Shown here: piece after piece, positions 47,174-62,962 of the stretch | Layout: each line of letters starts with the position of its first letter | Numbering within the stretch: position 1 is the stretch's first letter | Assembly (NCBI GenBank): GCA_902614055.1 | Contig: CACMJX010000001.1 | Coordinates: 189,189 to 253,188, forward strand | Direction: 5' to 3' | Length of the DNA: 64,000 bases | Origin: an uncultured Pelagibacteraceae bacterium | Lineage (GTDB): Bacteria > Pseudomonadota > Alphaproteobacteria > Pelagibacterales > Pelagibacteraceae | Notes under the pieces: generated by a model | Told to the model about the DNA's origin: nothing | The model's input: only the letters and a program-made list of their open reading frames with translations | Databases searched by the model: none | Made by a program: the position numbers and the translations under genes

Positions 47174-48190
47174 CTAATTTATTTTTAATTTTTCAAATTT
47201 TTTTGATTTAACTGATTTTTGTGCAGCTTCAGCTAAAATTATAGACTTTCTTCCATCTTCAAAAACCCCTCTGGGTTTGATATTTTTTTTGCAAAAGTTT
47301 GCAAGATCAGATAGTTGCAACCTAAAAGCTTCTGCATATCTTTCTATAAAAAAATGAAGGAGAGGGGATTTATTATTTGTCGAATTTTTTAAAAAGAGAT
47401 TCGTTTCTGTATCTCTTTTATTATCTGATATCATCATTCCTTTTGTTCCAAAAAGCTCAACTCTTTGGTCATAACCAAAACTACAATGTCTCGAATTAGT
47501 TATAATGCATTGCACTCCTTTTTTTGACTTAAGCACTGTAGTAGCAAGTTCATAGTCTTTTATTTTATTAAATCTTTGGTCTGATATGTTACTGCCAGTA
47601 GCAAATACTGATATAAATTCATCTGAACCCAAGTAGTATCTTGCCAAATCAAAATCATGTATCATCATATCTTTAAAAATTCCTCCAGAACTTTTTAAAT
47701 AAGATAACGAAGGAGGAGCAGGGTCGCGACTAGTAATAATAATTTTCTCTAGTTTACCTATTTTATTTTTCAATAAATTCTTTTTAAGTAAATTATGTCC
47801 AGGATCATATCTTCTATTAAATCCTATTTGAACTTTAGGATTAAGTTTTTTAATTTTTGTTAAAGATGAATTAATTTTTTTTAAATTTAAATCTAGTGGT
47901 TTTTCACAAAATATTACTTTTTTATATTTTACACCTTTTTCAATAAATTTTAAATGTGTAGAAGTAGAAGAGGCTATAAAAATACATCTAATTTCATTAT
48001 CTTTAAAAGCTATATCTGGATTATTTATTGAAATAGCATTAAATCTTTTTGAAATTTTGTTTAATAAATTTTTATTTAAATCAAAAACATATTTTAAATC
48101 AAATTCACTATTTTTTCTTAAATTATCAGCATGCATCTGGCCAATTCTACCAAGACCAAACAGAGCAGTTTTTATTTTATTTTTACCCAT
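47174..48190 (-). CDS. iolG: myo-inositol 2-dehydrogenase (IolG/IdhA)
   Basis: G.GRIG..H, CEKP, GFNRRYDP, TSRDPAPP, SGGIFKDMMIHDFD, NSR...GYDQRVE; start moved to ATG 48190. Confidence 0.9.
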   Translation of the reverse strand: MGKNKIKTALFGLGRIGQMHADNLRKNSEFDLKYVFDLNKNLLNKISKRFNAISINNPDIAFKDNEIRCIFIASSTSTHLKFIEKGVKYKKVIFCEKPLDLNLKKINSSLTKIKKLNPKVQIGFNRRYDPGHNLLKKNLLKNKIGKLEKIIITSRDPAPPSLSYLKSSGGIFKDMMIHDFDLARYYLGSDEFISVFATGSNISDQRFNKIKDYELATTVLKSKKGVQCIITNSRHCSFGYDQRVELFGTKGMMISDNKRDTETNLFLKNSTNNKSPLLHFFIERYAEAFRLQLSDLANFCKKNIKPRGVFEDGRKSIILAEAAQKSVKSKKFEKLKIN

Positions 48191-49317
48191 CTTTTTTTTC
48201 TGTTTGAAACTTTGCATGCTTCAATAAATTTTGCAGTTTCCAGTCCTTCGTCTTCATTGGGGTAAAAATACCTTTTTTTTGCATTATTTTTCAAAGAATT
48301 TGCAAATTCACGATAAATATTTGCAAATGCATCCAAATAACCTTCAGGATGACCAAATTTTAATCTAGAAAATTTTTTAGACAATTCAGCATTAAAAAAA
48401 CCTCTTTCAATAAATTTTACTGCACCTTTAGATGGATTAAGTTTTAAATAGTTTGGATCGTTTTGAACCCATTCCAAACTTCCTTTTGTTCCAAAAATTC
48501 TTATTCGTAATCCATAAACTCCACCTCTAGCCATCACACTTGTCCAAAACATTCCTTTAGCTCCATTATTAAAATTGATCATTACTTGAGCATTGTTGTC
48601 CATTTTAACTTTATTTGAAACTTGTTTAATATCTGCAAAAATAGTTTCACCTTTTAAACCTGATATATAAGTTGCCATATGATATGCATGTGAGCCAATT
48701 TCGTTTAAGACCGCTGAAGCTCCAACAATATTTTTATCTATTTTCCATTTAAACTTTTTCTTTGCATTTTTTTGTGAAATACTCTCTCCATCTGACCAAT
48801 CCTGAACGTATTCAACGTTTACGTATTCAACTTTTCCAATTTTACCTTTTTCAACCAATACTTTCGCCTCTCTAACCATAGGATAAGCAGAGTAATTGTG
48901 TGTCAAAGCATACTTAATTATTTTATTTGATTTTATTTTTTTAAATAATTTTTTAGCTTGAGTAAGATTTCCAGCAAATGGTTTATCAGAAATTACATGT
49001 ATATTTTTATCAATAAATTTTTCTGCAATAATTTGGTGACTTGAAGGAGGTGTCATTATTGCTACAACATTAATACCATCTTTTCTTGCCGCTTCTCTTT
49101 CAGCCATTTCTCTAAAATTTGAATAGCATCTCTCTTTTAAAATACCTAGGCTTTGACCAAAGCTTTTAGATAGTTTTGAATTTCTCGAAAAAACACCAGC
49201 AACTATCTCATATTGATTATCAAATCTTGATGAAATTCTATGAACATGACCAATCCAAGATTTTGGACCACCTCCAACTACGCCAAGCTGAATTTTTTTT
49301 CCTTTAATTAATCTCAT
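48172..49317 (-). CDS. Gfo/Idh/MocA family NAD(P)-dependent sugar/cyclitol oxidoreductase
   Basis: LGVVGGG..WIG.VHR, SDKP, THNY.AYPMVR, EIGSHA, GHPEGY..AFANIY; start moved to ATG 49317. Confidence 0.88.
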   Translation of the reverse strand: MRLIKGKKIQLGVVGGGPKSWIGHVHRISSRFDNQYEIVAGVFSRNSKLSKSFGQSLGILKERCYSNFREMAEREAARKDGINVVAIMTPPSSHQIIAEKFIDKNIHVISDKPFAGNLTQAKKLFKKIKSNKIIKYALTHNYSAYPMVREAKVLVEKGKIGKVEYVNVEYVQDWSDGESISQKNAKKKFKWKIDKNIVGASAVLNEIGSHAYHMATYISGLKGETIFADIKQVSNKVKMDNNAQVMINFNNGAKGMFWTSVMARGGVYGLRIRIFGTKGSLEWVQNDPNYLKLNPSKGAVKFIERGFFNAELSKKFSRLKFGHPEGYLDAFANIYREFANSLKNNAKKRYFYPNEDEGLETAKFIEACKVSNRKKRWVKIK

Positions 49318-49348
49318 GATTAAATATATCTTAACAAATAAAAAATTT

Positions 49349-50251
49349 ATGTCAGTAAAATTAGGTATAGCACCAATTGCTTGGAGTAATGATGACATGC
49401 CTGAGCTAGGCGGAGATACTCCTCTAGAACAATGTTTGTCAGAGGCAAGTCAGGCTGGATTTGTTGGGATTGAGTCAGGTGGTAAATTCCCAAAAACATC
49501 TGAGGAATTATTACCAAAATTAGAAAAGTATAACTTAAAATTATGTTCTGGTTGGTATAGCGGAAATCTAAGAAAAAATTCTGTTGAACAAGAAAAAAAT
49601 TTAATTCAAGACCAACTTAAATTATTTAAAGATTGTGAAGCTCCATGTATCGTTTTTGCTGAAGTTTTTGGTTCAATACAGGGTGATCCAACAAAAAAAC
49701 TTTCCAATAGACCAAAGATGACGGACCAAGAATGGAAAGATTATTGTACAAAAATTTCTGAGCTTGCAAAGTATCTTGAAGATGAAGGTATGCCTTTAGC
49801 TTATCACCATCATATGGGTACAGTAATAGAAACAGAAGAAGAAACTATTAGATTACTAGAAAACACAGATGATAGTGTAAAATTAACTTTAGATACTGGT
49901 CATATGTTATTTGCTAAGGGAAACTCAATTAATATAATTAATAAATTTAAAGAAAGAGTAATTCACATACACTGCAAAGATATTAGAGAAGAAGTATTAA
50001 AAAAAGCCCTTTCTGAAGATTTGAGTTTTAGGGAAGCTTTTTTAGAAGGTGCTTTTACGGTACCTGGCGATGGGTGTATCGACTACAAACCTCTGTTTGA
50101 TATTCTAAAAAAAAATAATTATCAAGGTTGGCTTGTGGTAGAGGCTGAACAAGATCCTAAAAAAGCTAATCCACTTGAATACGCTATCAAGGGTTACAAA
50201 TATATTACTGATACTTTAAAGAAATCAAATTTAGAGATTAATAATCTATAA
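49349..50251 (+). CDS. iolE: myo-inosose-2 dehydratase
   Basis: GIAPIAWSNDDMPELGG, YHHHMGT, DTGH, HCKD, FTVPGDG, VEAEQDP; start moved to ATG 49349. Confidence 0.96.
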   Translation: MSVKLGIAPIAWSNDDMPELGGDTPLEQCLSEASQAGFVGIESGGKFPKTSEELLPKLEKYNLKLCSGWYSGNLRKNSVEQEKNLIQDQLKLFKDCEAPCIVFAEVFGSIQGDPTKKLSNRPKMTDQEWKDYCTKISELAKYLEDEGMPLAYHHHMGTVIETEEETIRLLENTDDSVKLTLDTGHMLFAKGNSINIINKFKERVIHIHCKDIREEVLKKALSEDLSFREAFLEGAFTVPGDGCIDYKPLFDILKKNNYQGWLVVEAEQDPKKANPLEYAIKGYKYITDTLKKSNLEINNL

Positions 50252-51202
50252 TTTTACTTTTTTACTGTCTTCAAGTTTACCATCAAAAAAATCAAAAATA
50301 TTTTGAATAGTTTCTTTTGCCATTCTTGTCATGCATTCCTCAGTAAATGCTGCAGCGTGAGGACTAAGGAAAACTTTGTCATTTTTTAATAAAGGATTAT
50401 CAGCCTCTGGAGGCTCTACCTCAAATACATCAATTCCTGCTCCAAAAATCAAATTTTCATTCAATGCCCTATCTAAATCTTTTTCATTTATAATACCGCC
50501 TCTTGCAGCATTTATGATGATGCAGTTTTTTTTCATCGTTTTTAAAAGTTCGTAATTTATAATATTTTTAGTTTGATCAGTTAAAGGTATATGGAGTGAG
50601 ACAGCATCCATACCTTTAATAGCCTCTGATAAATCTTCAACTTTTTTACCACCCATTTTGCTTATTGTTTCTGAATCTACAAATGGATCGTAAACAAAAA
50701 CGTTCATTTCAAACCCTAAACATCTTTTAATCAACACTTTTCCTATTCTTCCAAATCCAGCAATAAGAATGTTTTTATCCCAAATCTCTATAGTTTTTGG
50801 TAATTTATTTCGTTCAGTAAATTTTCCACTTTTGACTGAATGGTCATACATACTCTTTCTTTTTGAGATACTTAAAAGCATGAAAAGAACATGTTCTGCA
50901 ACTGCCACAGCATTTGCTGTTGCGGTTATTGCTACGTCGATGTTTCCTTTTTTACAGCTATTTAAATCAATATTATCGTAACCAACTCCATGTCTTGAAA
51001 TTATTTTAAGGTTTTTTGCATTTTCAATTGCCTCAGCAGGTAATATAGATGTTCTTAAAGAAACTGCATCTGCATCTACAATTTTTTGTTTCACATTTTC
51101 AACACTTAAATCTTCAACAACCTCGTAACTATAGTCGCTATTACTTTTTAATAATTCCATACCTTTTTCATGAATAGGTTGGACAATGAGAATTTTTTTC
51201 AT
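50246..51202 (-). CDS. D-2-hydroxyacid dehydrogenase (short SerA-like, no ACT domain)
   Basis: RHGVGYDN, GFGRIG, NAARGG, DVF..EP, SPH.AA. Confidence 0.88.
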   Translation of the reverse strand: MKKILIVQPIHEKGMELLKSNSDYSYEVVEDLSVENVKQKIVDADAVSLRTSILPAEAIENAKNLKIISRHGVGYDNIDLNSCKKGNIDVAITATANAVAVAEHVLFMLLSISKRKSMYDHSVKSGKFTERNKLPKTIEIWDKNILIAGFGRIGKVLIKRCLGFEMNVFVYDPFVDSETISKMGGKKVEDLSEAIKGMDAVSLHIPLTDQTKNIINYELLKTMKKNCIIINAARGGIINEKDLDRALNENLIFGAGIDVFEVEPPEADNPLLKNDKVFLSPHAAAFTEECMTRMAKETIQNIFDFFDGKLEDSKKVKL

Positions 51203-51216
51203 AATTTTAAAAAAAA

Positions 51217-52206
51217 TTATATTAGTCTAGCAAGATCTCTTTTACTATTTCTAAATGTTGGAAGTGGATATTTAAAAGCATACTTTCTTGGAATACATTT
51301 ATTCTTTGCCTTTTCCCACAAAGCAATCCATTGCTTATAGTTGTGGATAGTAATATTTTTTTTATTTTTACTTCTTACATAAAAATTGGGCAAAGGTTTC
51401 CTACCAGATGGGGTTCCAGCTCTATTGTATCTTAAATCAGCGCTAATTCTAAAATCATTGGATCTATTAGGCAATGAACAGTGAATGGAGTGTTTGTGCA
51501 AAATAATAATATCGCCAACATTAGCCTCCAGAAAAACTGGCTTGTAATTATTAAGTAGTTTACTATCTTTTATTTCTACCTGACCTCTATATCCTGATAT
51601 ATGATTCAATAGTCCCAATTTATTAATTTCTTTTACTGTAATCATGCATCCATTTTTTTTAGTAGTTTTAGTAAATGGAATCCAAACAGTTACCATATCA
51701 GTTAATCTTTGTCCCAACGATGATAATACTGCTGCATCCTGATGCCATGGAGTTCTGCCTGAGAGACCATCGTGAACAGAATGTTTAGGTAATTTATTTT
51801 CGGGTTGTTTAATTCTTGTATTTTGAACTGGATTTGAAAGAATTTCTGGCCCTAATAATTTTTCAACTACATCCAAGATTTTTTTGTGATTAATTAAATT
51901 CCATAAAGATTGAGATGCAAAATAATCACTATCTTTCTTCACGTGATCTCTTGGAAGTCTAGTATTAAAATATTGATCAAGATCATAAATTCTTAGTTTT
52001 GAAATGTATGTGTATTTTTTTCTAAAGCTATATTTAAAAATTTTTTCTTTCATATGCACAGGAGCAAATTTATGAACTAAATTGTCCATTACATATTCCA
52101 TGTCATTTAAAATTGGTTTTAAATCTTTGTTGAAATTAAGAACATTTCTTACTCTTAGGAAGCCATCTCTATCTAAAATACTCTTTAATTTACTCTTAAT
52201 TTGCAT
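51217..52206 (-). CDS. PhyH-family Fe(II)/2-oxoglutarate dioxygenase
   Basis: TPWHQD, WIPF....NGCM, GD....H...H.S.PNRS...R...DLRY. Confidence 0.88.
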   Translation of the reverse strand: MQIKSKLKSILDRDGFLRVRNVLNFNKDLKPILNDMEYVMDNLVHKFAPVHMKEKIFKYSFRKKYTYISKLRIYDLDQYFNTRLPRDHVKKDSDYFASQSLWNLINHKKILDVVEKLLGPEILSNPVQNTRIKQPENKLPKHSVHDGLSGRTPWHQDAAVLSSLGQRLTDMVTVWIPFTKTTKKNGCMITVKEINKLGLLNHISGYRGQVEIKDSKLLNNYKPVFLEANVGDIIILHKHSIHCSLPNRSNDFRISADLRYNRAGTPSGRKPLPNFYVRSKNKKNITIHNYKQWIALWEKAKNKCIPRKYAFKYPLPTFRNSKRDLARLI

Positions 52207-52211
52207 AGTTA

Positions 52212-53072
52212 TTAATATTTTAGCAAATAATTCGAATCATGAAAAGATGTAAGCATTCTTTTTTTCGTCGCAACAATATGTGGATGATATTCAAAATTTT
52301 TATATTTCCATATCACTGGCTTGTTAAGAGCATAACTTCCATAAATAAAAAATCTTTTTGGACAGTTTTTTTCCTTAAATCTATTTACTCCGTGATAAGA
52401 ATTTGGAGTAGATTTAAAGAAAATTACACTTCCCTGTTTTGGTGTGAATTCCTTTAATTTATCAAGTTCATTAATCTTAGGAAACCTTCTAAAGCTTTTT
52501 CTAAGGTTTTTGTTTACTTTTTTCTTATATAAAGTAAGTGATCCTCCATTTTTTTTTGGTATATTGGTTAAATAGATCAAAAAATTATATAGCCTATTCA
52601 CATCATCTCTATGTGGTCTCAATCTATATCCTCCTTTAGATACTGAGAAATCAATATCTAAATTTAAATTTGGGTTTTTATAATCTTTACCTAGTAGTTT
52701 TTTTAGCTCTTTGGAATTTACTTTTCTTTTTAGTGTATATTTTTTTTTATTAAATTTTTTTGGTTTAAACAAACTTTCCCAGGTATTTGCCTTAAATTCT
52801 GTTTTAAATTTTTTATCAATTTTTTTATAAAAGGATTTTGTATTGAAAGTAGCAAAAAGTTTTTTTGAGATTTTAGAACTTGAGATATATTTGTTGAAAT
52901 TTTTTGATCCTTTATTAATCCTGCTTCTGCCACCCATAATCATATCATCAAAACTTTTTGAATTAGTTATTTCTTCAATTAAAGAATTACACACTTTTTT
53001 ACTGATTATTTGTTCTCCAACAATAACCGGGAAGTTTGATTTAATTTTTTTTAGTTTACTAATTTTCAGCAT
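52212..53072 (-). CDS. Fe(II)/2-oxoglutarate oxygenase (prolyl-hydroxylase-like)
   Basis: H-x-D (PHRDD), LIYL, GGSL.L, SYHGV, distal R..IY. Confidence 0.8.
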   Translation of the reverse strand: MLKISKLKKIKSNFPVIVGEQIISKKVCNSLIEEITNSKSFDDMIMGGRSRINKGSKNFNKYISSSKISKKLFATFNTKSFYKKIDKKFKTEFKANTWESLFKPKKFNKKKYTLKRKVNSKELKKLLGKDYKNPNLNLDIDFSVSKGGYRLRPHRDDVNRLYNFLIYLTNIPKKNGGSLTLYKKKVNKNLRKSFRRFPKINELDKLKEFTPKQGSVIFFKSTPNSYHGVNRFKEKNCPKRFFIYGSYALNKPVIWKYKNFEYHPHIVATKKRMLTSFHDSNYLLKY

Positions 53073-54017
53073 TTAGCTGTACATGCCCTCTTTTACTTTA
53101 ATCATTTTGTACATAAGGTCATTTAATGGTGTGGCTATTCCATGTTTTTTTCCTATTTTAGACACGGCGCCACTTATGAAATCAATTTCAGTTTTTCTTT
53201 TATAAAGCACATCAAAAGCCATTGAAGACTTATTTGTTTGTTTTGAATCAACAATTTTATTAAACATAAATAAACACTCATCTTCAGAAACATTAACACC
53301 ATCTGCTAAAGCAACGTCTCTTGTTTCTAAAATTATCTCTTTACCTAAACTTCTAGAAACGTCGTTGGCATTATTATTTATGTAAAGATCGGTATGATGT
53401 AGATCAAAAATAGCTGAAAGTGGGCCTATTGCGGTTAAAGCAAAAAGTTTCATCCATTTTCTTTTTTTTACATCCTCAGCTGCAATCATTTCTAAATTAT
53501 GAGCAGTAAATGTGTCTGCAATTTCAGTTATTCTATCTGAAATCCCACCATCATATTCTCCAATCCAAGAGGGTAGAGCGGCATGATTCATAATATGACC
53601 AGGGCCTAAGATATTAGATGCTTGAGTTGTTGTCCCCCCAATTACTTTTTCATCGCCAACAATACTTTTAATTATAGCTTCATGTCCAATTCCATTTTGA
53701 AAAGACATAAAAACTGTTTTATCGTTAATAATGTTTTTAATACTTTTTAAGGCAGGCTCTAGAGCTGTTGCTTTACACATGACTATCACAGCATCAACTT
53801 TTCCAATTGTAGAGGGATCCGATGTTGCTGGTACTTTTATAAATCTATCACCACCATGACCATTCATCTTTAGACCATTTTTATTTATTTCATCAACATG
53901 CTCTTTCCAAACATCAATGAGCGTTACATTTAGACCTTTTTCTGCTAGTAAGCCTCCAAATAGACAACCCATTGCCCCTGCACCAAGAACTGCAACTTTT
54001 AGATCTTTATTATTCAT
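53073..54017 (-). CDS. Ketopantoate reductase (PanE/ApbA) family protein
   Basis: GAGAMG, CKA, QNGIG, W.KL, SSM..D....TEID.I.G. Confidence 0.85.
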   Translation of the reverse strand: MNNKDLKVAVLGAGAMGCLFGGLLAEKGLNVTLIDVWKEHVDEINKNGLKMNGHGGDRFIKVPATSDPSTIGKVDAVIVMCKATALEPALKSIKNIINDKTVFMSFQNGIGHEAIIKSIVGDEKVIGGTTTQASNILGPGHIMNHAALPSWIGEYDGGISDRITEIADTFTAHNLEMIAAEDVKKRKWMKLFALTAIGPLSAIFDLHHTDLYINNNANDVSRSLGKEIILETRDVALADGVNVSEDECLFMFNKIVDSKQTNKSSMAFDVLYKRKTEIDFISGAVSKIGKKHGIATPLNDLMYKMIKVKEGMYS

Positions 54018-54036
54018 TTTTAAAGTCGAAATATAT

Positions 54037-54069
54037 TTATGTAAAAAAATTATGCAATATATTATGTAA
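54037..54069. repeat. Three direct repeats TTATG(T/C)AA in the divergent panE-like/DUF1907 promoter region
   Basis: TTATGTAA at 54037, TTATGCAA at 54050, TTATGTAA at 54062. Confidence 0.4.
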
Positions 54070-54080
54070 CTAATTTATTT

Positions 54081-55049
54081 ATGGAATTAAAAATAGAAAA
54101 AGGAATTTTCAAAAAATTTAAGTTAGAAGAAATATCAAACGCATTAGAAAAAGGTCTGTCAAAGAATTATGACAGTGTAAAAGCAGAAGTAATTGATTGT
54201 CCAAATTTAAGAAACTGGGATTGTCCGTCTGAAGGCATGAGTGGTAACCAAAGGATAATCGATGTTGGAGGGGAGCCTTACATGCATGATCCTAAATATC
54301 TTGGAACAGAATTTGATTATTTTGAAATCTCTAAAATGATTGGATCAGAAAGATCGTACGCACTTGGCGCAGGATCTGGTGCAATGTCTTGCCTGGATGG
54401 ACACAGTGGAGAATTGGTTATAAATGAAAATTTTATTACAAAAGAAAATAAATCTTTAATTGCTAGGGTAGGAAAAGATAAAGAATGTATAGTAGAGGAC
54501 TATACTGCAAGCAAACATGGCGGGCTGGGTAATGTTTATTATTCAGATGGTGTTAAAGGAAAAGTTATATGTTTAAAGATAAAAAAAAGAATTGGAAAAC
54601 AAGGTTCATTACCTCAATCAATAAGAGCAGTACTTTCAGAAAATCTTAAAATTGGGAATAAAGATCATATTGCTCTTGCTGGTGTATTTAGAGTTTTGAA
54701 TGGAAAAATAAGATCACATGTACAACCAGATTATAAGGATATAAAACATGAATATTATGACCCACAATTGATGAAATGCACAAAAGATTTTCTACAATTT
54801 TATGAGCCTGTTGGACCAAAATTACAATGCTATACTGTTTTATGGACTGGTGATCCAACGGGAGGAGAATTAAATTTAAGAGAGTCCGGTGAGCATACTC
54901 ACTTTCACTCATATGAGCATAAGAATGATGCTGGACATTATCATTTTGACGTTTCACCAGATGAAATTGAATATGAAGGGTACTTTAATATTGCACAAGA
55001 AGTATATAGAGTGAATAATATCTATAAAGAATTAAAAAATATAAAATGA
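54081..55049 (+). CDS. DUF1907 / PTD012 (C11orf54-like) Zn-dependent protein
   Basis: N-terminal LEEI..ALEKGL..NY..V...VIDCPNL...G..RIIDVGG.PY and C-terminal EHTHFHS....GHYHFD..PD..EY.GYF resemble the recalled human C11orf54 motifs. Confidence 0.88.
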   Translation: MELKIEKGIFKKFKLEEISNALEKGLSKNYDSVKAEVIDCPNLRNWDCPSEGMSGNQRIIDVGGEPYMHDPKYLGTEFDYFEISKMIGSERSYALGAGSGAMSCLDGHSGELVINENFITKENKSLIARVGKDKECIVEDYTASKHGGLGNVYYSDGVKGKVICLKIKKRIGKQGSLPQSIRAVLSENLKIGNKDHIALAGVFRVLNGKIRSHVQPDYKDIKHEYYDPQLMKCTKDFLQFYEPVGPKLQCYTVLWTGDPTGGELNLRESGEHTHFHSYEHKNDAGHYHFDVSPDEIEYEGYFNIAQEVYRVNNIYKELKNIK

Positions 55050-55861
55050 AAAAGATTTATACTTGGGCCGCTCAACCTGCCAACAGAACACTTACAGTTG
55101 ATGATCTTAAAAAAGCTAAAGGAAAAAAAAAATTTACTCAAGTCACAGCTAATACAATAGATGAAGCTGAGGCCGCAGAGAAGGCTGGGTTTGACATGAT
55201 AATCTGCAATGCTTTTAATGTGAAACATGTGAGAGAGGGATCAAAAAATCTATTTTTAACTGCTGCGTTAGTATTAAATAAGTTTGTCACTTCGGAAGAT
55301 ATCATGAGAGGAGCGTTTGAAGCCCTAGAAAATGGAGCTGATGCTGTAATGACACCTAGAAGTATGAAGATAATAGAAATGCTGGCTAATGAGGATGTTC
55401 CAGTTATGGGACATCTTGGTTTAGTTCCAAGAAAATCTACTTGGATTGGTGGTTTAAGAGCAGTAGGAAAAAATAGTGAAGAGGCACATGAACTTTTTTT
55501 AAAATTTAAAAGTTTAGAAGATGCAGGAGCTTTTTCTGCCGAATGTGAGGTTATCCCAGAAAATGTAATGGGAGAAATCTCAAAAAGAACGAATATAGTT
55601 ACAGTATCTTTAGGTTCAGGAAAGAAAGCTGACGTAATGTATCTGTTCATGGAAGACATATGTGGAGATACTTTAAATCCTCCAAGACATTCAAAAGCTT
55701 ATGGAAATTTATTAAAATTAAAAAATGAAATAAAAGTTGAGAGAGTTCGAGCTCTTAAGGCATTCAAAAAAGATTCAATGGCAGGAAAATTTCCAGGAAA
55801 AAAACAATCTTCAAATTTAAATAAAAAAGAGTTCGAGTCTTTTCTTGATAAGCTTGATTAA
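55046..55861 (+). CDS. Divergent PanB-like (ketopantoate hydroxymethyltransferase fold) protein
   Basis: VPVMGHLGLVP, GG.RAVGK, LEDAGAF..ECEVIP, LGSG..AD retained; GDS, DMPF and K.EG motifs missing. Confidence 0.8.
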   Translation: MKKIYTWAAQPANRTLTVDDLKKAKGKKKFTQVTANTIDEAEAAEKAGFDMIICNAFNVKHVREGSKNLFLTAALVLNKFVTSEDIMRGAFEALENGADAVMTPRSMKIIEMLANEDVPVMGHLGLVPRKSTWIGGLRAVGKNSEEAHELFLKFKSLEDAGAFSAECEVIPENVMGEISKRTNIVTVSLGSGKKADVMYLFMEDICGDTLNPPRHSKAYGNLLKLKNEIKVERVRALKAFKKDSMAGKFPGKKQSSNLNKKEFESFLDKLD

Positions 55862-56649
55862 TAAGTTTCAGATTCTTTTTTGCTTATTGAGCCTTTCATT
55901 TTTTCAACAATTGCTTTAGCACCTGCGCTCATTGCTCTTTGATCTGCACCAATAGTTACAAAGTTAAAACCTTTATCGATCATTTTTTGTGCGTACTCTG
56001 GTGTTCCATTATGAATTCCTGCAAAGATATTATTTTTTTTGGCATGCTCTAATATTCTTAATATTTCTGAATAAGCTTTTGTATCTTCTGCTCTGTCAAA
56101 CCCAGGCTTTTCTCCTATTGCTAAACTTAAGTCAGCTGGACCAATATATATTCCATCTACGCCATCTGTTGACATAATCTCATCTAATTTATCTAATGAC
56201 TCTTTTGTTTCAATCATAGCTAATTTTAAAATTTCATCATTTGCATGGTCGGCATAATCAGCTCCACCATAAATCAATCCTCTAACAGGACCAAAACTTC
56301 TATATCCTCTTGGGGGATACATACAAGCTTGAACAAATCTTTCCGCCTCTTCTTTGTTACTTACCATTGGACATATAATTCCATAACAACCAGCGTCTAA
56401 AATTTTCATTATTTGGCCTGGTTCATTCCAATTTACTCTAGCAAGAGGAGTTACATCAGTTGATGAAATTGTTTGAAGCATAGGAAGTGCATTTGTGTAA
56501 TCAACAAGTCCATGTTGCATATCTACAGTTAGAGAGTCCCAACCTTGATGCGCCATAACTTCTGCTGATACAGTGCTTGGTATTTGTAACCAACCATTTA
56601 CAACAGGCTTACCATCAGCCATCATTTGTTTGACTTTATTTTTTCTCAT
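55858..56649 (-). CDS. HpcH/HpaI class II pyruvate aldolase
   Basis: VDMQHG, ARV, LDAG..GIICPMV, YPPRG.RSFGP, MIET, IGPADL. Confidence 0.92.
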   Translation of the reverse strand: MRKNKVKQMMADGKPVVNGWLQIPSTVSAEVMAHQGWDSLTVDMQHGLVDYTNALPMLQTISSTDVTPLARVNWNEPGQIMKILDAGCYGIICPMVSNKEEAERFVQACMYPPRGYRSFGPVRGLIYGGADYADHANDEILKLAMIETKESLDKLDEIMSTDGVDGIYIGPADLSLAIGEKPGFDRAEDTKAYSEILRILEHAKKNNIFAGIHNGTPEYAQKMIDKGFNFVTIGADQRAMSAGAKAIVEKMKGSISKKESETY

Positions 56650-58091
56650 TAATAATTGAGACCGAAGTGAGTGTACTTTACGTTCAAATAATCTTTGATA
56701 GCCATTGAACCACCTTCTCTTCCATAACCTGTTTGTTTTATTCCTCCAAAAGGTACTTCAGCAAATGCAATTGTTGGATGGTTCACTGCGCATGTTCCAG
56801 TTTCCATTTTTTCTGAGACTTTGTGTGCTTTTTCTAAAGAATTTGTGTAAATATAGCTTGCTAAACCAAGGTCATTGTCATTTGCTCTTTCCACAACTTC
56901 ATCTGTGTCTTTAAAAGTAAGCAATGGAACTAAAGGTCCAAAGGGCTCTTCTTTAGCAATTGTAAAATTATCTTTAACATTGTCAAAAACAGTTGGTTCA
57001 TAGAAATATCCTTTATTAAAACCAGCTGGTCTCTTCCCCCCACATAAAACCGTTGCTCCCTCACTTTTAGTTTTTTCTACTAATGCCTCTATTTCATTTA
57101 ATCTTTTTTCTGTAGTTAAAGGTCCTAGAATTGTATCTTCATCCATTCCGTTACCAACTTTCAGTTTAGTAACCTTTTCAACTAATTTTTTAGCAAATTC
57201 ATCTTTTTTACTTTCATGAATATAAAATCTTGCTGGTGATATACAAACTTGACCATTATTTCTAAATTTAGCAGTAATTGCCATGTCGGTTACCTTGTTA
57301 ATATCTACGTCGTCAAAAACAATGAAAGGTGAATGGCCACTTAATTCCATTGTAACTCTTTGGACTTTTTCAGCAGCTTGTTTTAAAATTAGTTTTCCAA
57401 CTCTTGTTGAACCAGTAATAGAAACTTTTTTCACTATATCAGATGATATTAATTGAGATGAGATTTTAGCTGGATCACCAGATAATAAATTTACTACTCC
57501 TGGAGGAACGCCCGCATCATTTATAATATTCATAAGTTCCATTACACTACCTGGAGTAATTACATCAGGCTTACAAATTACTGAGCATCCTGCAGCTAAA
57601 GCAGTGGAAATTTTTCTTGAGGATAAAACTATTGGAAAGTTCCATGGTATTAATCCAGCAACAACTCCAACAGGTTCATATTTTACATACATTCTTGTAT
57701 GTTCAAATCTACTTTCAACTATCTGACCATAAATTCTTTTTGTTTCCTCAGAGTTCCACTCAAAAATATCTGCAGCTCCTCCAACTTCCCCTTTTGCTTC
57801 TGATAGTGGCTTTCCAACTTCTAATGTTAACCACTTAGCCAAAACATCAGTTCTCTCTCTCATAAGATCGGCAATTTTTCTTATAATTTTTGATCTTTGC
57901 CAAGGTGGAGTATTTCTCCAAACTTCAAGACCTTTTTCTGCAGACTTAAGTGCTTTGTTTACATCTTCTTCACCTGCTTTAGATGCCTTACCTAAAACTT
58001 CTTCTGTTGCAGGATTTAAAACATCATAAGTTTCATTATTTTGTGATGCTTGCCATTTGCCATCAATGAATTGTCCAAATTTGCTATACAT
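56649..58091 (-). CDS. NAD(P)-dependent semialdehyde dehydrogenase (succinate/alpha-ketoglutarate semialdehyde type)
   Basis: PWNFP, TGST.VG, MEL.GH.P, KFRNNGQVCISP, EEPFGP, PFGG.K.TG.GREGG. Confidence 0.9.
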   Translation of the reverse strand: MYSKFGQFIDGKWQASQNNETYDVLNPATEEVLGKASKAGEEDVNKALKSAEKGLEVWRNTPPWQRSKIIRKIADLMRERTDVLAKWLTLEVGKPLSEAKGEVGGAADIFEWNSEETKRIYGQIVESRFEHTRMYVKYEPVGVVAGLIPWNFPIVLSSRKISTALAAGCSVICKPDVITPGSVMELMNIINDAGVPPGVVNLLSGDPAKISSQLISSDIVKKVSITGSTRVGKLILKQAAEKVQRVTMELSGHSPFIVFDDVDINKVTDMAITAKFRNNGQVCISPARFYIHESKKDEFAKKLVEKVTKLKVGNGMDEDTILGPLTTEKRLNEIEALVEKTKSEGATVLCGGKRPAGFNKGYFYEPTVFDNVKDNFTIAKEEPFGPLVPLLTFKDTDEVVERANDNDLGLASYIYTNSLEKAHKVSEKMETGTCAVNHPTIAFAEVPFGGIKQTGYGREGGSMAIKDYLNVKYTHFGLNY

Positions 58092-58146
58092 AATTTTTAT
58101 TTTGTGGTTTATTAGTTGAATATTTGAAGAGAATATAACTAGAAAA

Positions 58147-59991
58147 ATGAGAAAAATAAAGCTTACTTGCGCACATGCCTTAGTTAAACACTTAATTGCA
58201 CAGAAAATCTATATAGATGGTAAGGTTGAACCTTTATTCCCAGGAGCTTTTGGTATTTTTGGACATGGAAATGTAGCATGTATTGGGCAAGCTTTAGAGG
58301 AAAATAAAGATAAACTTCCAACATTTAGAGGTCATCATGAACAAAATATGGCTTTAACAGGCATTGCTTTTTCAAGAGCAAAAAGAAGAAAGCAAATTTT
58401 TATTGCAACAAGTTCGGTTGGACCAGGATCTACAAATCTAGTTACAGCATCAGCAGTAGCGATGAGTAATAGATTGCCAATTTTATTTTTACCTGGAGAT
58501 ACTTATGCAAATAGAATGCCAGATCCAGTTTTGCAACAGGTTGAACACTTTTCAAATCCAGGAATGACAGCTAACGACTCATTTAAACCAGTTACAAAAT
58601 ATTTTGATAGAATTACAAGACCAGAGCAAATATTACAGTCACTTCCTCAAGCAATTCAAACCATGTTAGATCCAGCAGATTGTGGTCCTGCGTGTTTATC
58701 TTTATGCCAAGATGTACAAGGAGAAACATTTGAATATCCCGAAGAATTCTTTAAAGAAAGAGTTCACAATATTAGAAGACCCAAGCCAGATGATTTTCAA
58801 ATTAAACAAGCTGTTGTAAGAATTAAGAATTCCAAAAACCCAATTATAATTTCAGGTGGAGGGGTATTTTATTCTGACGCCATGGAAGAGTTAAGCAATT
58901 TTGCAGTTAAACATAATATACCAGTAACTCAAACAGTTATGGGATACTCAACAATGAAAAGAGATCATTCTCATTTTGTAGGACCAATAGGAGGACTTGG
59001 AGGAAAGGCTGCAAATAATTTAGCTAAAGAAACTGATTTAGCAATTTGTATTGGTACAAAATTAGCTGACTTTACAACTGGATCATGGGCGAATTTTGAA
59101 AATCCTCAATTTAAGTTAGTTTCAATTAATATTGCTAGACATGATGCTAATAAACATTTAGCAGACGCAGTTATTGGAGATGCAAAAGTATCATTAATAG
59201 AATTATCAAATGCACTTGGAGATTGGAGATCATCTGATAATTGGCATAAAAAATCACAAGATGAGCTTAGGTCTTGGAATGAATATGTAGATAAAGAGAG
59301 TGGTCCAACTAATCAAGATTTACCAAGTTATGCTCACGCTGTTGGAGCAATTTATAGGAATTCAGATCCAACTGATATAGCTGTTACAGCAGCAGGAGGT
59401 TTGGTCGGAGAAGTTGTTCAAGTTTGGCGGCCAAAAGAGTTAAATACACATGAGACAGAGTGGGGATTTAGTTGCATGAGTTATGAAATTTCCGGTGCTC
59501 TTGGAATTAAAATGGCAAACCCAGATAAAGATGTCATTGCATTTGTAGGAGATGGTTCATATTTATTAAACAATTCAGACATATATTCTTCAGTATTAAC
59601 GAATAACAAATTAATAATTATCGTGTGTGATAATGGAGGTCATGCTGTTATAAATAGACTTCAATTGTTCAAGGGTGGAAAAGAATTTAATTGTTTATTT
59701 AATTCATCAAATGTTCAAGATTTAAAAGAAGTTAATTTTGCTCAACATGCTGCAAGTATGGGTGCAAAATCAGAACATGTTTCTAGTATTTCAGAATTAG
59801 AAGAAGCATTTAAAAGAGCTAAGCAGTCAGAAATCACTTATGTCATTTCAATCAAAACACATAGTTATGAATGGCTTGAGGGATCTGCTTATTGGGAAAG
59901 TCCTACGCTTGAAATACCAACATCAAAAGAAAATGAAGAAGCATTAAAACTCCATAAAGAAGGAAAATCAAAACAGAGACAAGGTGTTTAA
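58147..59991 (+). CDS. iolD: ThDP-dependent 3D-(3,5/4)-trihydroxycyclohexane-1,2-dione acylhydrolase
   Basis: FGIFGHGNV, PDPVLQQVE, YFDRITRPEQ, E.GFSCM.YEI.G, GDGSYL, INRLQ. Confidence 0.96.
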   Translation: MRKIKLTCAHALVKHLIAQKIYIDGKVEPLFPGAFGIFGHGNVACIGQALEENKDKLPTFRGHHEQNMALTGIAFSRAKRRKQIFIATSSVGPGSTNLVTASAVAMSNRLPILFLPGDTYANRMPDPVLQQVEHFSNPGMTANDSFKPVTKYFDRITRPEQILQSLPQAIQTMLDPADCGPACLSLCQDVQGETFEYPEEFFKERVHNIRRPKPDDFQIKQAVVRIKNSKNPIIISGGGVFYSDAMEELSNFAVKHNIPVTQTVMGYSTMKRDHSHFVGPIGGLGGKAANNLAKETDLAICIGTKLADFTTGSWANFENPQFKLVSINIARHDANKHLADAVIGDAKVSLIELSNALGDWRSSDNWHKKSQDELRSWNEYVDKESGPTNQDLPSYAHAVGAIYRNSDPTDIAVTAAGGLVGEVVQVWRPKELNTHETEWGFSCMSYEISGALGIKMANPDKDVIAFVGDGSYLLNNSDIYSSVLTNNKLIIIVCDNGGHAVINRLQLFKGGKEFNCLFNSSNVQDLKEVNFAQHAASMGAKSEHVSSISELEEAFKRAKQSEITYVISIKTHSYEWLEGSAYWESPTLEIPTSKENEEALKLHKEGKSKQRQGV

Positions 59992-60000
59992 AAACTTTTT

Positions 60001-61158
60001 ATGAATAAGGTTTTTAAAATTGGTTTAATAGGTTGTGGACATATCGCTGAAACATATTTTAGAGCTGAAAAATATTTCAATAATATTAAAATTGTTAAAT
60101 GTGCAGATATTAATTTGAAAGCTGCAAAACGTTGTGCATTAAACTATGGAATAAAATTTTTAACTGTAAATGAACTGCTAAAAGATAAAGAGGTTGAAAT
60201 TATTTTAAACCTTACAATTCCAAAAGCGCATTATTCAATATCTAAAAATGCTTTAACAAATGGAAAACATGTATACTCTGAAAAGCCATTAGCAATAAAT
60301 TTAAAAGATGGAAAAGATTTAATAAATTTATCAAAGAAAAAAAAATTATATTTAGGTAATGCTCCTGATACATTTTTGGGTGGTGGAATTCAAAAATCAA
60401 AAGAACTAGTTGAAAAAAACATAATTGGAAAAATTAAATTAGGCAATGCAGTTTTTGCTTTTCCTGGCATTGAGTCTTATCACCCAAACCCTGAACCTTG
60501 GTTTGCAAAAAATGAGGGAGGTCCCGTTATTGATATGGGACCGTATTATATTACTGCTTTAGTAAATCTGTTAGGACCTGCAAAAAAAGTAACTAGCACC
60601 ATCATTCAAGGACAAAAATATAGGACAATTGGAATAGGACCAAAAAAAGGAAAAAAATTTAAAGTAGAATGTCCAACTACTTATTTATCTACAATTACTT
60701 TTAAAAATAACTCCGTTATAAGATTAACATTATCATTTGATGTAATAGCTCATCAAAGAAACCACATTGAATTATATGGAGAAAAGGGTTCAATTATTGT
60801 TCCTGACCCAAATATGTTCGGTGGATCAGTGTTAACCTGTAATAAATTAGGTGAAAATTGGAAAGAATATAAGACTACAAAAATGCCTTTGGGACGTATT
60901 AATATTAGAACACAAAGTTCTAGAGCTAACGAAGCACCAACTAATGCAAACTACCGAGGAGCAGGATTATCTGAAATGGCATATTCAATTGAGAATAAAA
61001 AAAAACATTTATGTAATGGTGAGATATCTTTACATGTATTAGAAATTATAACTTCTATTATGAAAGCAGCAAAATCTGGAACATCTGTGTCAATTAATAC
61101 AAACTGTGCAAAACCAAAAAAGTTTTTAGAAATAGATGCAAAGAATTTACTTAAATAA
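60001..61158 (+). CDS. Gfo/Idh/MocA family oxidoreductase
   Basis: IGCG.I...Y, NLTIP.AH, SEKP, APDTFLG, GGP..DMGPYY, PDPN.FGG. Confidence 0.9.
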   Translation: MNKVFKIGLIGCGHIAETYFRAEKYFNNIKIVKCADINLKAAKRCALNYGIKFLTVNELLKDKEVEIILNLTIPKAHYSISKNALTNGKHVYSEKPLAINLKDGKDLINLSKKKKLYLGNAPDTFLGGGIQKSKELVEKNIIGKIKLGNAVFAFPGIESYHPNPEPWFAKNEGGPVIDMGPYYITALVNLLGPAKKVTSTIIQGQKYRTIGIGPKKGKKFKVECPTTYLSTITFKNNSVIRLTLSFDVIAHQRNHIELYGEKGSIIVPDPNMFGGSVLTCNKLGENWKEYKTTKMPLGRINIRTQSSRANEAPTNANYRGAGLSEMAYSIENKKKHLCNGEISLHVLEIITSIMKAAKSGTSVSINTNCAKPKKFLEIDAKNLLK

Positions 61159-61165
61159 ATTGACA

Positions 61166-62188
61166 GTGAAGAAACATATAGTTATTTCTGATCCATTTCC
61201 AAGAAGATTAGATTTAATTTTTTCAAAAAAAAAACTTAAGGAATTAAAATCAAAATACAAAATAATATCAGCTCCTAAGTTAAATAAAAAAGATTTTTAT
61301 GAAAAAAATATTCATAAAGCTACTTTTATAATGGGTCAACCAGATCTGGATAAAAATCTTTTGTCAAAAGCTTCTAAGTTGAAATGTATTATAAATGTCG
61401 AAAGTAATTTTATAGATAATATTGACTATGATTATTGCTTCAAAAAAAAAATTGATGTCATCGCTACATCACCTGTTTTTGCAAAGCCTGTTGCTGAAAT
61501 AGCCTTAGGTATGACTTTGTCTATTTTAAGAAATATTCATAATGCTCATATTGATTTTGTAAAAGGTAAAGAAAAATATGGTTTAAAGAGTAATTTGAAT
61601 GCTTCCCTATTGGCAAATAAAAAAATTGGTTTACTTGGTTTTGGAGATTTGGCTAAGGCACTTTACCCATTACTGCTACCATTTACAAAAAATATAAATG
61701 TTTATGACCCCTGGGTCCCAAATAAAATAATTAAAAAAGCTGGATTTAAGTCTATTAATTTAAATAAAATGTTTAGTGATTGTGAGATTATTTATGTTCT
61801 AGCAACTATCACAACTAAAAACAAAAACTTAATAAACAAAAAATTATTAAATAAAATGAAACCTAAATCAGTTTTTGTTTTAATGAGTAGAGCAGCAATC
61901 GTTAATTTTGTGGACCTAAAAAAAAGAATTAAAAAGGGAGATATATATGTCGCAACAGATGTATTTCCTGAAGAACCTGTAAAAAAAAATGATCCAATTA
62001 GAAAGCTTAAAAATATATTGTTTTCAGCTCATAGAGCTGGAGCTTTAGAACAGGCTTTTTTTGATATGGGCGACATTGTTCTAAAAGATATGAACTTAAT
62101 TTTAAAAAAAATGCCTCCAAAATTCTGCAAAAGGGCTCAAAGAAAAACGGTAAATCTGTTAGCCTCAAAACCTGTTGCAATTAACTGA
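61166..62188 (+). CDS. D-2-hydroxyacid dehydrogenase family protein
   Basis: DP.PR..DLIF, VAE.ALG, GFGDL, YDPW, catalytic R/E/H in SRAA, DVFPEEP, SAHRAG; start is GTG 61166 or ATG 61136. Confidence 0.85.
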   Translation: MKKHIVISDPFPRRLDLIFSKKKLKELKSKYKIISAPKLNKKDFYEKNIHKATFIMGQPDLDKNLLSKASKLKCIINVESNFIDNIDYDYCFKKKIDVIATSPVFAKPVAEIALGMTLSILRNIHNAHIDFVKGKEKYGLKSNLNASLLANKKIGLLGFGDLAKALYPLLLPFTKNINVYDPWVPNKIIKKAGFKSINLNKMFSDCEIIYVLATITTKNKNLINKKLLNKMKPKSVFVLMSRAAIVNFVDLKKRIKKGDIYVATDVFPEEPVKKNDPIRKLKNILFSAHRAGALEQAFFDMGDIVLKDMNLILKKMPPKFCKRAQRKTVNLLASKPVAIN

Positions 62189-62210
62189 TTTTTTTATATT
62201 TTCTTCACTT

Positions 62211-62960
62211 ATGTCATCGATTAATCAATTACTTCTAGAAGCAAAAAGTGTAACAAAATACTTTGGAACGATAACAGCTCTAGAGAATGTCAATTTAAAG
62301 ATACATGCAGGAGAATGTCTTGGTGTTGTGGGTGATAATGGAGCTGGCAAATCAACTTTAATGAAGGTTTTATCAGGGCTATACAAACCAAGTGCAGGCT
62401 CATTATTCTTTGATGGTAAAGAGAAGATTTTAGAAAGCCCTAAAGACTCTCAAAATTTAGGTCTAGAAATGGTTTATCAAGACTTGGCATTAGCTGGAAA
62501 TCTTCCAATAGGTGAAAATATTTTTTTAGGACGTGAACCAACTAAAAATCTTGGACTACTTAAATTTCTAGATTATAAAAAAATTAAAGAACTTACTGAT
62601 GCGCATCTTGGTAAATTAAAAATTAATGTCAAAAGTGCTGATCAAAAAGTAGAAGAACTTTCAGGTGGTCAAAGGCAAGCAGTTGCAATTGCAAGATCAA
62701 CAGCATTTAATGCTAAAGTTGTAATAATGGATGAACCAACTGCTGCACTTGCAATTAAAGAAGTTGGTAAAGTTTTAGACCTTATAAATAGTTTAAAACA
62801 AACAGGTGTTGGAGTAATAGTTATTAGTCATAGAATGGATGATATTTTTGCCGTGTGTGATCGTGTGATGGCCTTATTCCAAGGAACAAATTTTGCAGAA
62901 TCTGAATTATCTAAAACTTCAAGAGATGAAGTAATAGGTTGGATTATGGGTAAAAAATAA
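62211..62960 (+). CDS. Sugar ABC transporter ATP-binding protein (CUT2, single domain)
   Basis: GDNGAGKST, VYQDLAL, LSGGQRQAVAIAR, MDEPTAAL; start moved to ATG 62211. Confidence 0.93.
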   Translation: MSSINQLLLEAKSVTKYFGTITALENVNLKIHAGECLGVVGDNGAGKSTLMKVLSGLYKPSAGSLFFDGKEKILESPKDSQNLGLEMVYQDLALAGNLPIGENIFLGREPTKNLGLLKFLDYKKIKELTDAHLGKLKINVKSADQKVEELSGGQRQAVAIARSTAFNAKVVIMDEPTAALAIKEVGKVLDLINSLKQTGVGVIVISHRMDDIFAVCDRVMALFQGTNFAESELSKTSRDEVIGWIMGKK

Positions 62961-62962
62961 TT

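Follow-up and report, generated by a model that had tools for sequence, protein, structure and literature searches.

This analysis concerns a stretch of 64,000 nucleotides (the window) from an uncultured SAR11 bacterium of the Pelagibacteraceae (assembly GCA_902614055.1, contig CACMJX010000001.1, positions 189,189 to 253,188) and, within it, the span 50246-58091, which separates the inositol catabolism genes iolE and iolD. The window lies within contig C1 of a low-GC genome of 1.17 Mb that is 78% complete (G000). Eight intact open reading frames (ORFs) fill the span, and their Pfam families are 2-Hacid_dh, PhyH, 2OG-FeII_Oxy_3, ApbA, DUF1907, Pantoate_transf, HpcH_HpaI, and Aldedh. Assigned to the modules A and B that are argued for below, and listed with their neighbors, the genes are as follows.

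47174..48217, minus strand: IolG-like inositol dehydrogenase of the upper pathway (TIGR04380, 344 bits, slightly below the cut-off of 355).
48172..49398, minus strand: accessory Gfo/Idh/MocA dehydrogenase, found in 6/26 SAR11 iolD loci; the real start is probably at ~49317.
49316..50251, plus strand: IolE, myo-inosose-2 dehydratase (TIGR04379, 414 bits, cut-off 290).
50246..51202, minus strand: module A D-2-hydroxyacid dehydrogenase (2HADH; PF00389/PF02826, with NAD-binding and Arg/Glu/His motifs).
51217..52206, minus strand: module B PhyH-family Fe(II)/2-oxoglutarate (2OG) dioxygenase (H155-x-D157...H242 intact).
52212..53072, minus strand: module B 2OG-Fe(II) oxygenase (H154-x-D156...H227 intact).
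53073..54017, minus strand: module B PanE/ApbA-family oxidoreductase (above the cut-off for the TIGR00745 subfamily, below those for the PanE equivalogs).
54081..55049, plus strand: module B DUF1907 protein, a homolog of C11orf54 (PF08925; PDB 1XCR, E 1.4e-36).
55046..55861, plus strand: module B PanB-fold paralog with a degenerate active site (below the PanB cut-offs; motif comparison).
55858..56649, minus strand: module A class II HpcH aldolase of an SwHKA-like subfamily (PDB 6R62, E 7e-60, versus ~1e-39 for HpaI).
56649..58091, minus strand: module A aldehyde dehydrogenase (aldH; Aldedh), similar to succinic semialdehyde and alpha-ketoglutaric semialdehyde dehydrogenases, found in 26/26 iolD loci.
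58147..59991, plus strand: IolD of the aldolase-linked subfamily (TIGR04377, 785 bits, cut-off 715), divergent from aldH.
60001..61158, plus strand: Gfo/Idh/MocA dehydrogenase after iolD, found in 26/26 SAR11 iolD loci.

The eight genes form three blocks on alternating strands, with panE-2OG-phyH-2HADH on the minus strand, DUF1907-panB on the plus strand, and aldH-hpcH on the minus strand, and the divergent gaps measure 63 bp (panE/DUF1907) and 55 bp (aldH/iolD). The original prediction had placed eight genes of these families between iolE and iolD, and the ORFs and Pfam matches confirmed all of them. It had also regarded them as one cassette, a unity that did not hold, since the strands alternate and relatives show a three-gene core with a five-gene insert. 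A single eight-gene operon is ruled out by the strand layout together with this synteny.

The synteny was read from 26 SAR11 iolD loci, hand-picked from five genera with and without DUF1907, for which counts are not frequencies. Along with the two genes present in all of them (aldH and the Gfo gene after iolD), the aldolase was found in 25, iolE in 24, and 2HADH in 23, two of the misses for iolE and 2HADH being stretch ends. PhyH, 2OG, panE, and DUF1907 were each found in 7 loci and panB in 3. In five genomes (G015, G055, G093, G139, and G133) aldH-hpcH-2HADH run uninterrupted, and in the window's lineage the five remaining genes are inserted between hpcH and 2HADH. We are confident that the eight genes represent two modules: module A, consisting of aldH, hpcH, and 2HADH, and module B, an insert of the PhyH, 2OG, PanE-like, DUF1907, and PanB-like genes.

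The distribution of DUF1907 was followed in an evenly drawn sample of 301 Pelagibacteraceae genomes, 205 of them with a completeness of 90% or more (G124, an unpublished genome in this set, contributes a single count). DUF1907 is present in 86 of the 301, and 79 of 85 relatives that carry it also have iolD. The proposal that all eight genes form one pathway is not supported, because 66 of 145 iolD-positive genomes lack DUF1907 and PanE/DUF1907 are unlinked from iolD in two genera. In the window's genus the two genes are neighbors: iolD occurs in 65 of the 67 genomes with DUF1907, in most cases at a distance of 3-5 kb. In genus g4, where iolD accompanies DUF1907 in only 10 of 14 carriers (base rate, 22/37), module B lies elsewhere in the genome with a branched-chain-type ABC transporter, and in genus g2, panE and DUF1907 flank acyl-CoA ligase, enoyl-CoA hydratase, enolase-family, and CitE-like genes. 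The PanE-like gene remains close to DUF1907 in the three genera compared. Module B is probably unrelated to the end of inositol breakdown and probably serves a different organic acid. DUF1907 as a replacement for IolB/IolC is ruled out by its absence from 4 of 20 single-contig iolD genomes, and a mutual exclusion was not seen either, as IolB and IolC were not found in DUF1907-negative genomes.

SAR11 has a gap in the pathway after IolD. In family searches for which the control genomes were positive in all three cases (IolD, IolB, and IolC), IolD was matched in 146 of the 301 genomes (107 of the 205 with a completeness of at least 90%), in each case as a single copy. IolB was matched once among the 301, weakly; this sole IolB/KduI-family match (G231 C4:107984-108484) is partial, is interrupted by a TGA stop codon, and lies apart from iolD. 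No IolC was found at E 1e-40 in 80 iolD-positive genomes drawn from 145. In G000, at its 78% completeness, there is no match to IolB (PF04962) or DUF2090 and no IolC above the cut-off, and iolB and iolC do not lie just beyond the window; their presence there would have spoken against the original prediction. An iolA-type gene, in contrast, does exist outside the window: an MmsA/IolA-type dehydrogenase is encoded at an unlinked site (C10:7370-8803; TIGR01722, 706 bits, above the cut-off). From the canonical pathway, G000 therefore retains recognizable IolE and IolD and an unlinked IolA/MmsA, and IolB and IolC are not recognized.

Two of the three module A genes are largely confined to genomes with iolD. 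In an iolD-negative comparison set (80 of 155 genomes), the aldolase search returned 20 matches at E 1e-20, just 4 of them at least 78% identical and the others paralogs at 28-37%. Among the close copies, those of G153 and G173 lie on contigs that end at aldH, and the match in G036 has stops. The 2HADH search of the same set returned 7 matches, close only in G153 and G173, both of which are fragmented.

The catalytic motifs are intact in all three module A enzymes. The aldolase is 90-100% identical to Pelagibacteraceae copies, and its best solved match is SwHKA of Sphingomonas wittichii (PDB 6R62). Alignment to this enzyme shows that W20, Q45, H46, R71, S118, E147, and D173 are kept; the metal ligands E147 and D173 are invariant, H46 and R71 align with SwHKA H44 and R69, and the S116 equivalent is retained, whereas His replaces F210 and Val replaces R120. 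Against the HpaI, GarL, and RhmA equivalogs the aldolase scores 177/369, 149/407, and 114/441 bits, all under the cut-off. Likewise, aldH remains below both GabD cut-offs (TIGR01780, 502/646 bits; PRK11241, 469/828 bits).

The IolD that accompanies module A also belongs to a subfamily of its own. A FastTree phylogeny of 76 IolD sequences (midpoint-rooted, with an arbitrary root; 12 SAR11 rows retained out of 36) divides into 21 and 55 rows with SH-like support of 100. The 21 rows hold all 17 iolB/C-linked copies, and the 55 rows hold all 36 aldolase-linked copies, the 12 from SAR11, a Paracoccus copy, and 6 without context. The canonical members in this tree are alphaproteobacterial, with none from firmicutes or gammaproteobacteria, and it covers 28 of 56 non-G000 places plus a few more, most middle-scoring class loci having been left out. 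SAR11 IolD shares seven diagnostic columns with aldolase-linked IolD to the exclusion of canonical IolD, compared with three that it shares with canonical IolD in the control contrast, and several of the seven fall in thiamine diphosphate or active-site motifs (C45, A500-V501).

The same association was found outside SAR11. Plasmid searches with the aldolase and with IolD returned 66 and 241 records, respectively, many of them common to both with matches a few kb apart. Seven annotated stretches were chosen for shared aldolase/IolD matches or as top IolD matches, with Thalassospira serving as the canonical control. An operon in the order aldH-aldolase-2HADH adjoins iolD/iolE, and the stretch is free of iolB/iolC, on plasmids of Rhizobium leguminosarum Vaf-108, Shinella sumterensis, Qingshengfaniella, Pantoea, Acidiphilium, and R. 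daejeonense; the association thus extends to other Alphaproteobacteria and to Gammaproteobacteria. The Rhizobium aldolase led to 80 metagenome loci, of which 23 had iolD or iolE; 19 of these 23 had both dehydrogenases and none had iolB/C, and many of the other loci are short. Of the best 60 of 86 non-G000 aldolase matches at class level, 6 loci had iolD/E and 4 the full trio. Of three other top plasmid aldolase matches, two lie in glucarate/galactarate clusters and the third in a stretch without relation to these; the homologs in the two clusters tie the aldolase subfamily to C6 diacids.

A parallel version of this arrangement includes a dehydratase. Two alphaproteobacterial loci (L345:496-9866 of G345, with PhyH and mmsA, and L346 of G407) combine iolD, Gfo, IlvD/Edd, lactonase, short-chain dehydrogenase (SDR), and aldolase genes, with no aldH/2HADH within the 9-10.5 kb compared. 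The dehydratase version is predicted to yield pyruvate and malonate semialdehyde by the same logic of reaching a 2-keto acid. An IlvD/Edd gene is also found beside iolD/iolE in L351 (G492). A third arrangement, on plasmids of Shinella zoogloeoides and Rhizobium sp. NXC24 (L322, L323:12001-24823), comprises iolD, an epimerase/dehydratase-family gene, 2HADH, aldolase, and an ABC transporter, followed by Gfo, a divergent iolE, lactonase, iolG, and a histidinol-dehydrogenase-like gene; its IolD is sister to the SAR11 IolD group in the tree. In L349 and L350 (G476 and G325, 1.4- to 1.6-Mb genomes of other families), an IolD 68% identical to the window's is adjoined by a divergent 2HADH; neither has aldH/aldolase beside iolD, and an aldolase homolog lies far off in both genomes. 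Genes of the sterol-desaturase and fatty-acid-desaturase families adjoin the cluster on the plasmid of R. leguminosarum Vaf-108 (L154:240-2399) and resemble the MocD rhizopine demethylase, a possible hint of an O-methyl cyclitol there.

Taken together, these data suggest that module A likely finishes inositol breakdown after IolD without ATP, isomerase, or kinase, and we infer each reaction of the route from the observed genes, families, catalytic residues, and linkage and from the lack of IolB/IolC matches. IolD yields 5-deoxy-D-glucuronate, an aldehyde-acid, to which IolG, IolE, and IolD would lead here as in the canonical pathway, given their family membership. HpcH aldolases need a 2-keto acid, and the only constant partners of this one are aldH and a D-2-hydroxyacid dehydrogenase; the shortest route would thus comprise two oxidations followed by cleavage between C3 and C4. 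In this scheme, aldH, or the Gfo enzyme after iolD, would oxidize C1 to give 5-deoxy-D-glucarate, from which 2HADH would form 3,4-dihydroxy-2-oxoadipate by oxidizing the (R)-hydroxyl at C2; this R configuration is our own Cahn-Ingold-Prelog reading and fits D-specific enzymes. The aldolase would then release hydroxypyruvate and malonate semialdehyde by C3-C4 retro-aldol cleavage, and the unlinked MmsA would convert the latter to acetyl-CoA. The Gfo enzyme after iolD is predicted to be either an isomer-entry enzyme or an alternative oxidizer of 5-deoxyglucuronate. That module A acts on the product of IolD is, from the sequences, probable; whether the exact chemistry proposed applies to myo-, scyllo-, or chiro-inositol may be evenly balanced. 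The original suggestion that the cassette replaces the phosphorylative lower pathway thus survives for three genes, as IolB/IolC were not found in the sampled family and aldH-hpcH-2HADH travel with iolD/iolE in and outside SAR11, and it is not supported for the other five.

A number of observations weigh against this interpretation. At least 67% identical aldH copies are present in 63 of the 80 iolD-negative SAR11 genomes, where their neighbors are garR, FAH, ppc, or genes for sugar transport; in a tree they are intermingled, within a single clade, with the copies of iolD carriers. aldH is therefore a core SAR11 enzyme with another job and cannot be called inositol specific; a quick IQ-TREE analysis with few outgroups found no iol-specific aldH clade in SAR11. 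The aldolase is kept in another cluster in G140, a single-contig genome with no iolD match, and is missing from one iolD locus (L069). Its His213, at the SwHKA F210 position, indicates no preference for hydroxypyruvate over pyruvate, and the same His is common to non-iol homologs, which makes this residue uninformative as a donor predictor. In 54 of the best 60 class-level aldolase loci there is no iol gene; the subfamily is broad and iol-linked in part only. In the aldolase and 2HADH trees the SAR11 copies fall outside the Rhizobium-type clades, and repeated reassembly of the module is thus possible. In Paracoccus alcaliphilus a single cluster holds the trio along with iolC/iolB, G371 has a second, iolC-linked iolD, and G370 has kept iolB. 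The R. daejeonense operon includes a pyruvate carboxylase.

The fate of the C3 product and the uptake genes raise further difficulties. Neither glycerate kinase family searched was found in the complete genome G015, and one query found none in G000; nor does G000 have a strong class V aminotransferase besides SufS or an obvious serine-pyruvate aminotransferase, so that these searches found no outlet for hydroxypyruvate. In 16 compared SAR11 loci the binding protein that adjoins iolG is closest to PDB 4RU1, whose ligand is presumably myo-inositol, which speaks for the proposed route; against it, no such protein was matched in G000, where the orthologue of the adjacent binding protein is ribose/allose-like. 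SAR11 cells are auxotrophic for glycine/serine and depend on its uptake. A stronger claim, that half of SAR11 species burn inositol by this ATP-free oxidative route, with hydroxypyruvate released in vivo and transaminated to serine so that inositol supplies acetyl-CoA and glycine/serine, would give the SwHKA-like subfamily its first physiological role; we regard it as quite unlikely.

Several of these points fit an alternative in which module A and its IolD subfamily serve another cyclitol, a deoxy-, methyl-, or stereo-variant. A pentol without the ring C4 hydroxyl, for example, would give 4-hydroxy-2-oxoadipate and then pyruvate and malonate semialdehyde, by ordinary pyruvate-aldolase chemistry. 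The separate IolD clade with its diagnostic columns, the coexistence of iolB/iolC with module A in some outside carriers, the pyruvate carboxylase, the glycerate kinase result, and the desaturase-like genes, SDRs, extra TIM barrels, and PhyH proteins that recur near outside clusters all favor such a substrate. However, SAR11 IolE and IolD exceed the myo-inositol equivalog cut-offs, the sole iolD copy in each of the 146 genomes fits an abundant substrate, and we know of no abundant marine deoxy-inositol of the needed pattern; this alternative appears possible but unlikely. Modified cyclitols, which the original prediction had also considered, may come in mainly through module A with its divergent IolD and not through the dioxygenases. 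All eight genes would cooperate in a different scenario, in which the dioxygenases unmask O-methyl or sulfated cyclitols and the DUF1907, PanE-like, and PanB-like proteins form a decarboxylating side route from 5-deoxyglucarate. The close linkage of DUF1907 to iolD in the window's genus and the position of 2HADH at the end of the panE-2OG-phyH run agree with it, as does the action of the human DUF1907 homolog downstream of myo-inositol, as described in the main text of PMC12337341. Against it stand the iolD genomes without DUF1907, the unlinked g4 module near the base rate, the MarR-like regulator that accompanies many DUF1907 copies (a lead only), the lack of a module B orthologue in outside iolD-aldolase clusters, and the missing human C-terminal Asp in the window protein, and we consider this scenario very improbable.

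It is also conceivable that module A is only loosely tied to IolD, with aldH a housekeeping enzyme where the island docked and unlinked enzymes, such as a ROK kinase with an unrecognized isomerase or a dehydratase elsewhere in the genome, handling the IolD product. This would account for the near-universal aldH and for the ROK-family kinase within 20 of the 26 SAR11 iolD loci, after the iolG-ABC genes in several genera; moreover, IlvD-, enolase-, and UxaA-type dehydratases lie 10-35 kb downstream in G000, and G015 has one mandelate racemase-family enolase. Yet distant bacteria have the same three genes as an operon, and no ROK kinase is annotated in their clusters; the aldolase and 2HADH are lost together with iolD, and in G015 there is just one IlvD, with no dehydratase in the vicinity of iolD. 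A loose tie is, in our estimation, improbable. The ROK kinase may possibly be the missing kinase for a C3 product; in G000 it lies beyond the window (C1:261633-262535), and it is also present in L051, L053, and L061.

In module B, the HxD...H facial triad of the PhyH and 2OG gene products is invariant in 10 sequences each. In the PanB-like protein, as compared with the genome's own PanB (canonical panB, C1:147578), the GDS, ADMP, and KLEG motifs, which we take to be the Mg-binding Asp pair and the Lys/Glu motif of PanB, are replaced, and there is an ~20-amino-acid deletion. The DUF1907 protein keeps the three Zn histidines and H217 of human C11orf54 (1XCR), with an insertion in the R263 region and without the C-terminal D315, and is predicted to be a Zn-dependent beta-keto-acid decarboxylase. 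The human protein (BKGD) decarboxylates beta-keto-L-gulonate according to the main text of PMC12337341, in which the word "bacteria" does not occur; unlike it, the window protein has a PanE-like partner instead of CRYL1. Tentatively, module B might hydroxylate an imported organic acid, oxidize it to a keto acid through the PanE-like enzyme, and decarboxylate the product in a Zn-dependent step. A 137-amino-acid gene that often follows DUF1907 is MarR-like, which we note as a lead only. An Atlas search added nothing on the PanB-like protein, the PanB-like neighbor in G436 lies in an insertion sequence-rich stretch and is not usable, and a cut Pantoea PhyH fragment showed no similarity to the window PhyH.

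Further features were noted around the iol loci. For IolD, the Gfo enzyme after iolD, and PhyH, no close relative with a solved structure came up in PDB searches. A 166- to 170-amino-acid protein (L054:17936-18445) that has a hydrophobic helix at its N terminus and matches no Pfam family is encoded between 2HADH and iolE in 14 loci and is absent from G000. Several SAR11 genomes have another insert between phyH and 2HADH (L043:4680-11581, L046:463-4740) with a TRAP transporter, a di-heme cytochrome c peroxidase-family protein, Gfo, and 2HADH. Beyond iolD, a long sugar-acid island (window 61136-63976 and G000 C1:253273-281524) contains a second 2HADH, a ribose/allose-type ABC transporter, putative RbsD/RbsK-like, enolase-family, and PdxA-like genes, tripartite transporters, and UxaA- and IlvD-like dehydratase, GarR-like, FAH-like, and lactonase genes, several of these names being read from translations. 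A promoter/terminator scan remained at chance level (73 versus 75.2 expected). Contigs of four seawater RNA libraries from three studies cover 28-30 of 30 bins of 50000-60000; strand and level are not readable from them, and they were not used as evidence.

Compared with the canonical myo-inositol route (IolG-IolE-IolD-IolB-IolC-IolJ-IolA), the SAR11 system shares an IolG-like protein, IolE, IolD, an MmsA/IolA-type enzyme, and the predicted malonate semialdehyde, and it differs in the unmatched IolB and IolC and the separate IolD subfamily. The Thermotoga maritima route (IolG-IolM-IolN-IolO) reportedly bypasses IolE/IolD; it is likewise noncanonical and oxidation based, but SAR11 keeps both enzymes. 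Nonphosphorylative aldarate catabolism employs a GudD/GarD dehydratase, a GarL-type HpcH aldolase, and GarR. It too takes a C6 diacid to a 2-keto acid and then through a C3+C3 retro-aldol step, and clusters of this kind contain the same aldolase subfamily; in module A, which lacks a dehydratase, the 2-keto group would instead come from oxidation, so that the C3 hydroxyl stays. SwHKA accepts and binds hydroxypyruvate, in keeping with the cleavage proposed for module A, and the available part of PMC10099721 gives no natural substrate for it. In the parts available, PMC12789548 mentions inositol solely as a medium additive and PMC9788770 reports canonical iol genes for pinitol. We found no description of the module A branch in full-text literature; subscription papers fell outside this coverage and an earlier description is possible, but module A is likely an undescribed ATP-free ending of a known pathway.

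SAR11 dominates the surface ocean, and inositols are common algal metabolites. IolD is present in 146 of 301 sampled species, and yet these would score negative under a survey rule that counts an iol cluster only with three of iolB/C/D/E, by which SAR11 clusters would be missed; the main text of that survey (PMC9430895) does not mention Pelagibacter. SAR11 offers a clean case because no iolB/iolC was found beside module A. Module B would separately extend the C11orf54 decarboxylase family by a branch in bacteria and supply a protein of the PanB fold whose active site has been rebuilt. If module A is indeed the missing end, SAR11 would gain a further carbon source and the textbook pathway a second branch, which rhizobia, Paracoccus, and enterobacteria have as well; a natural substrate would also be at hand for an aldolase subfamily that is familiar chiefly as a biocatalyst.

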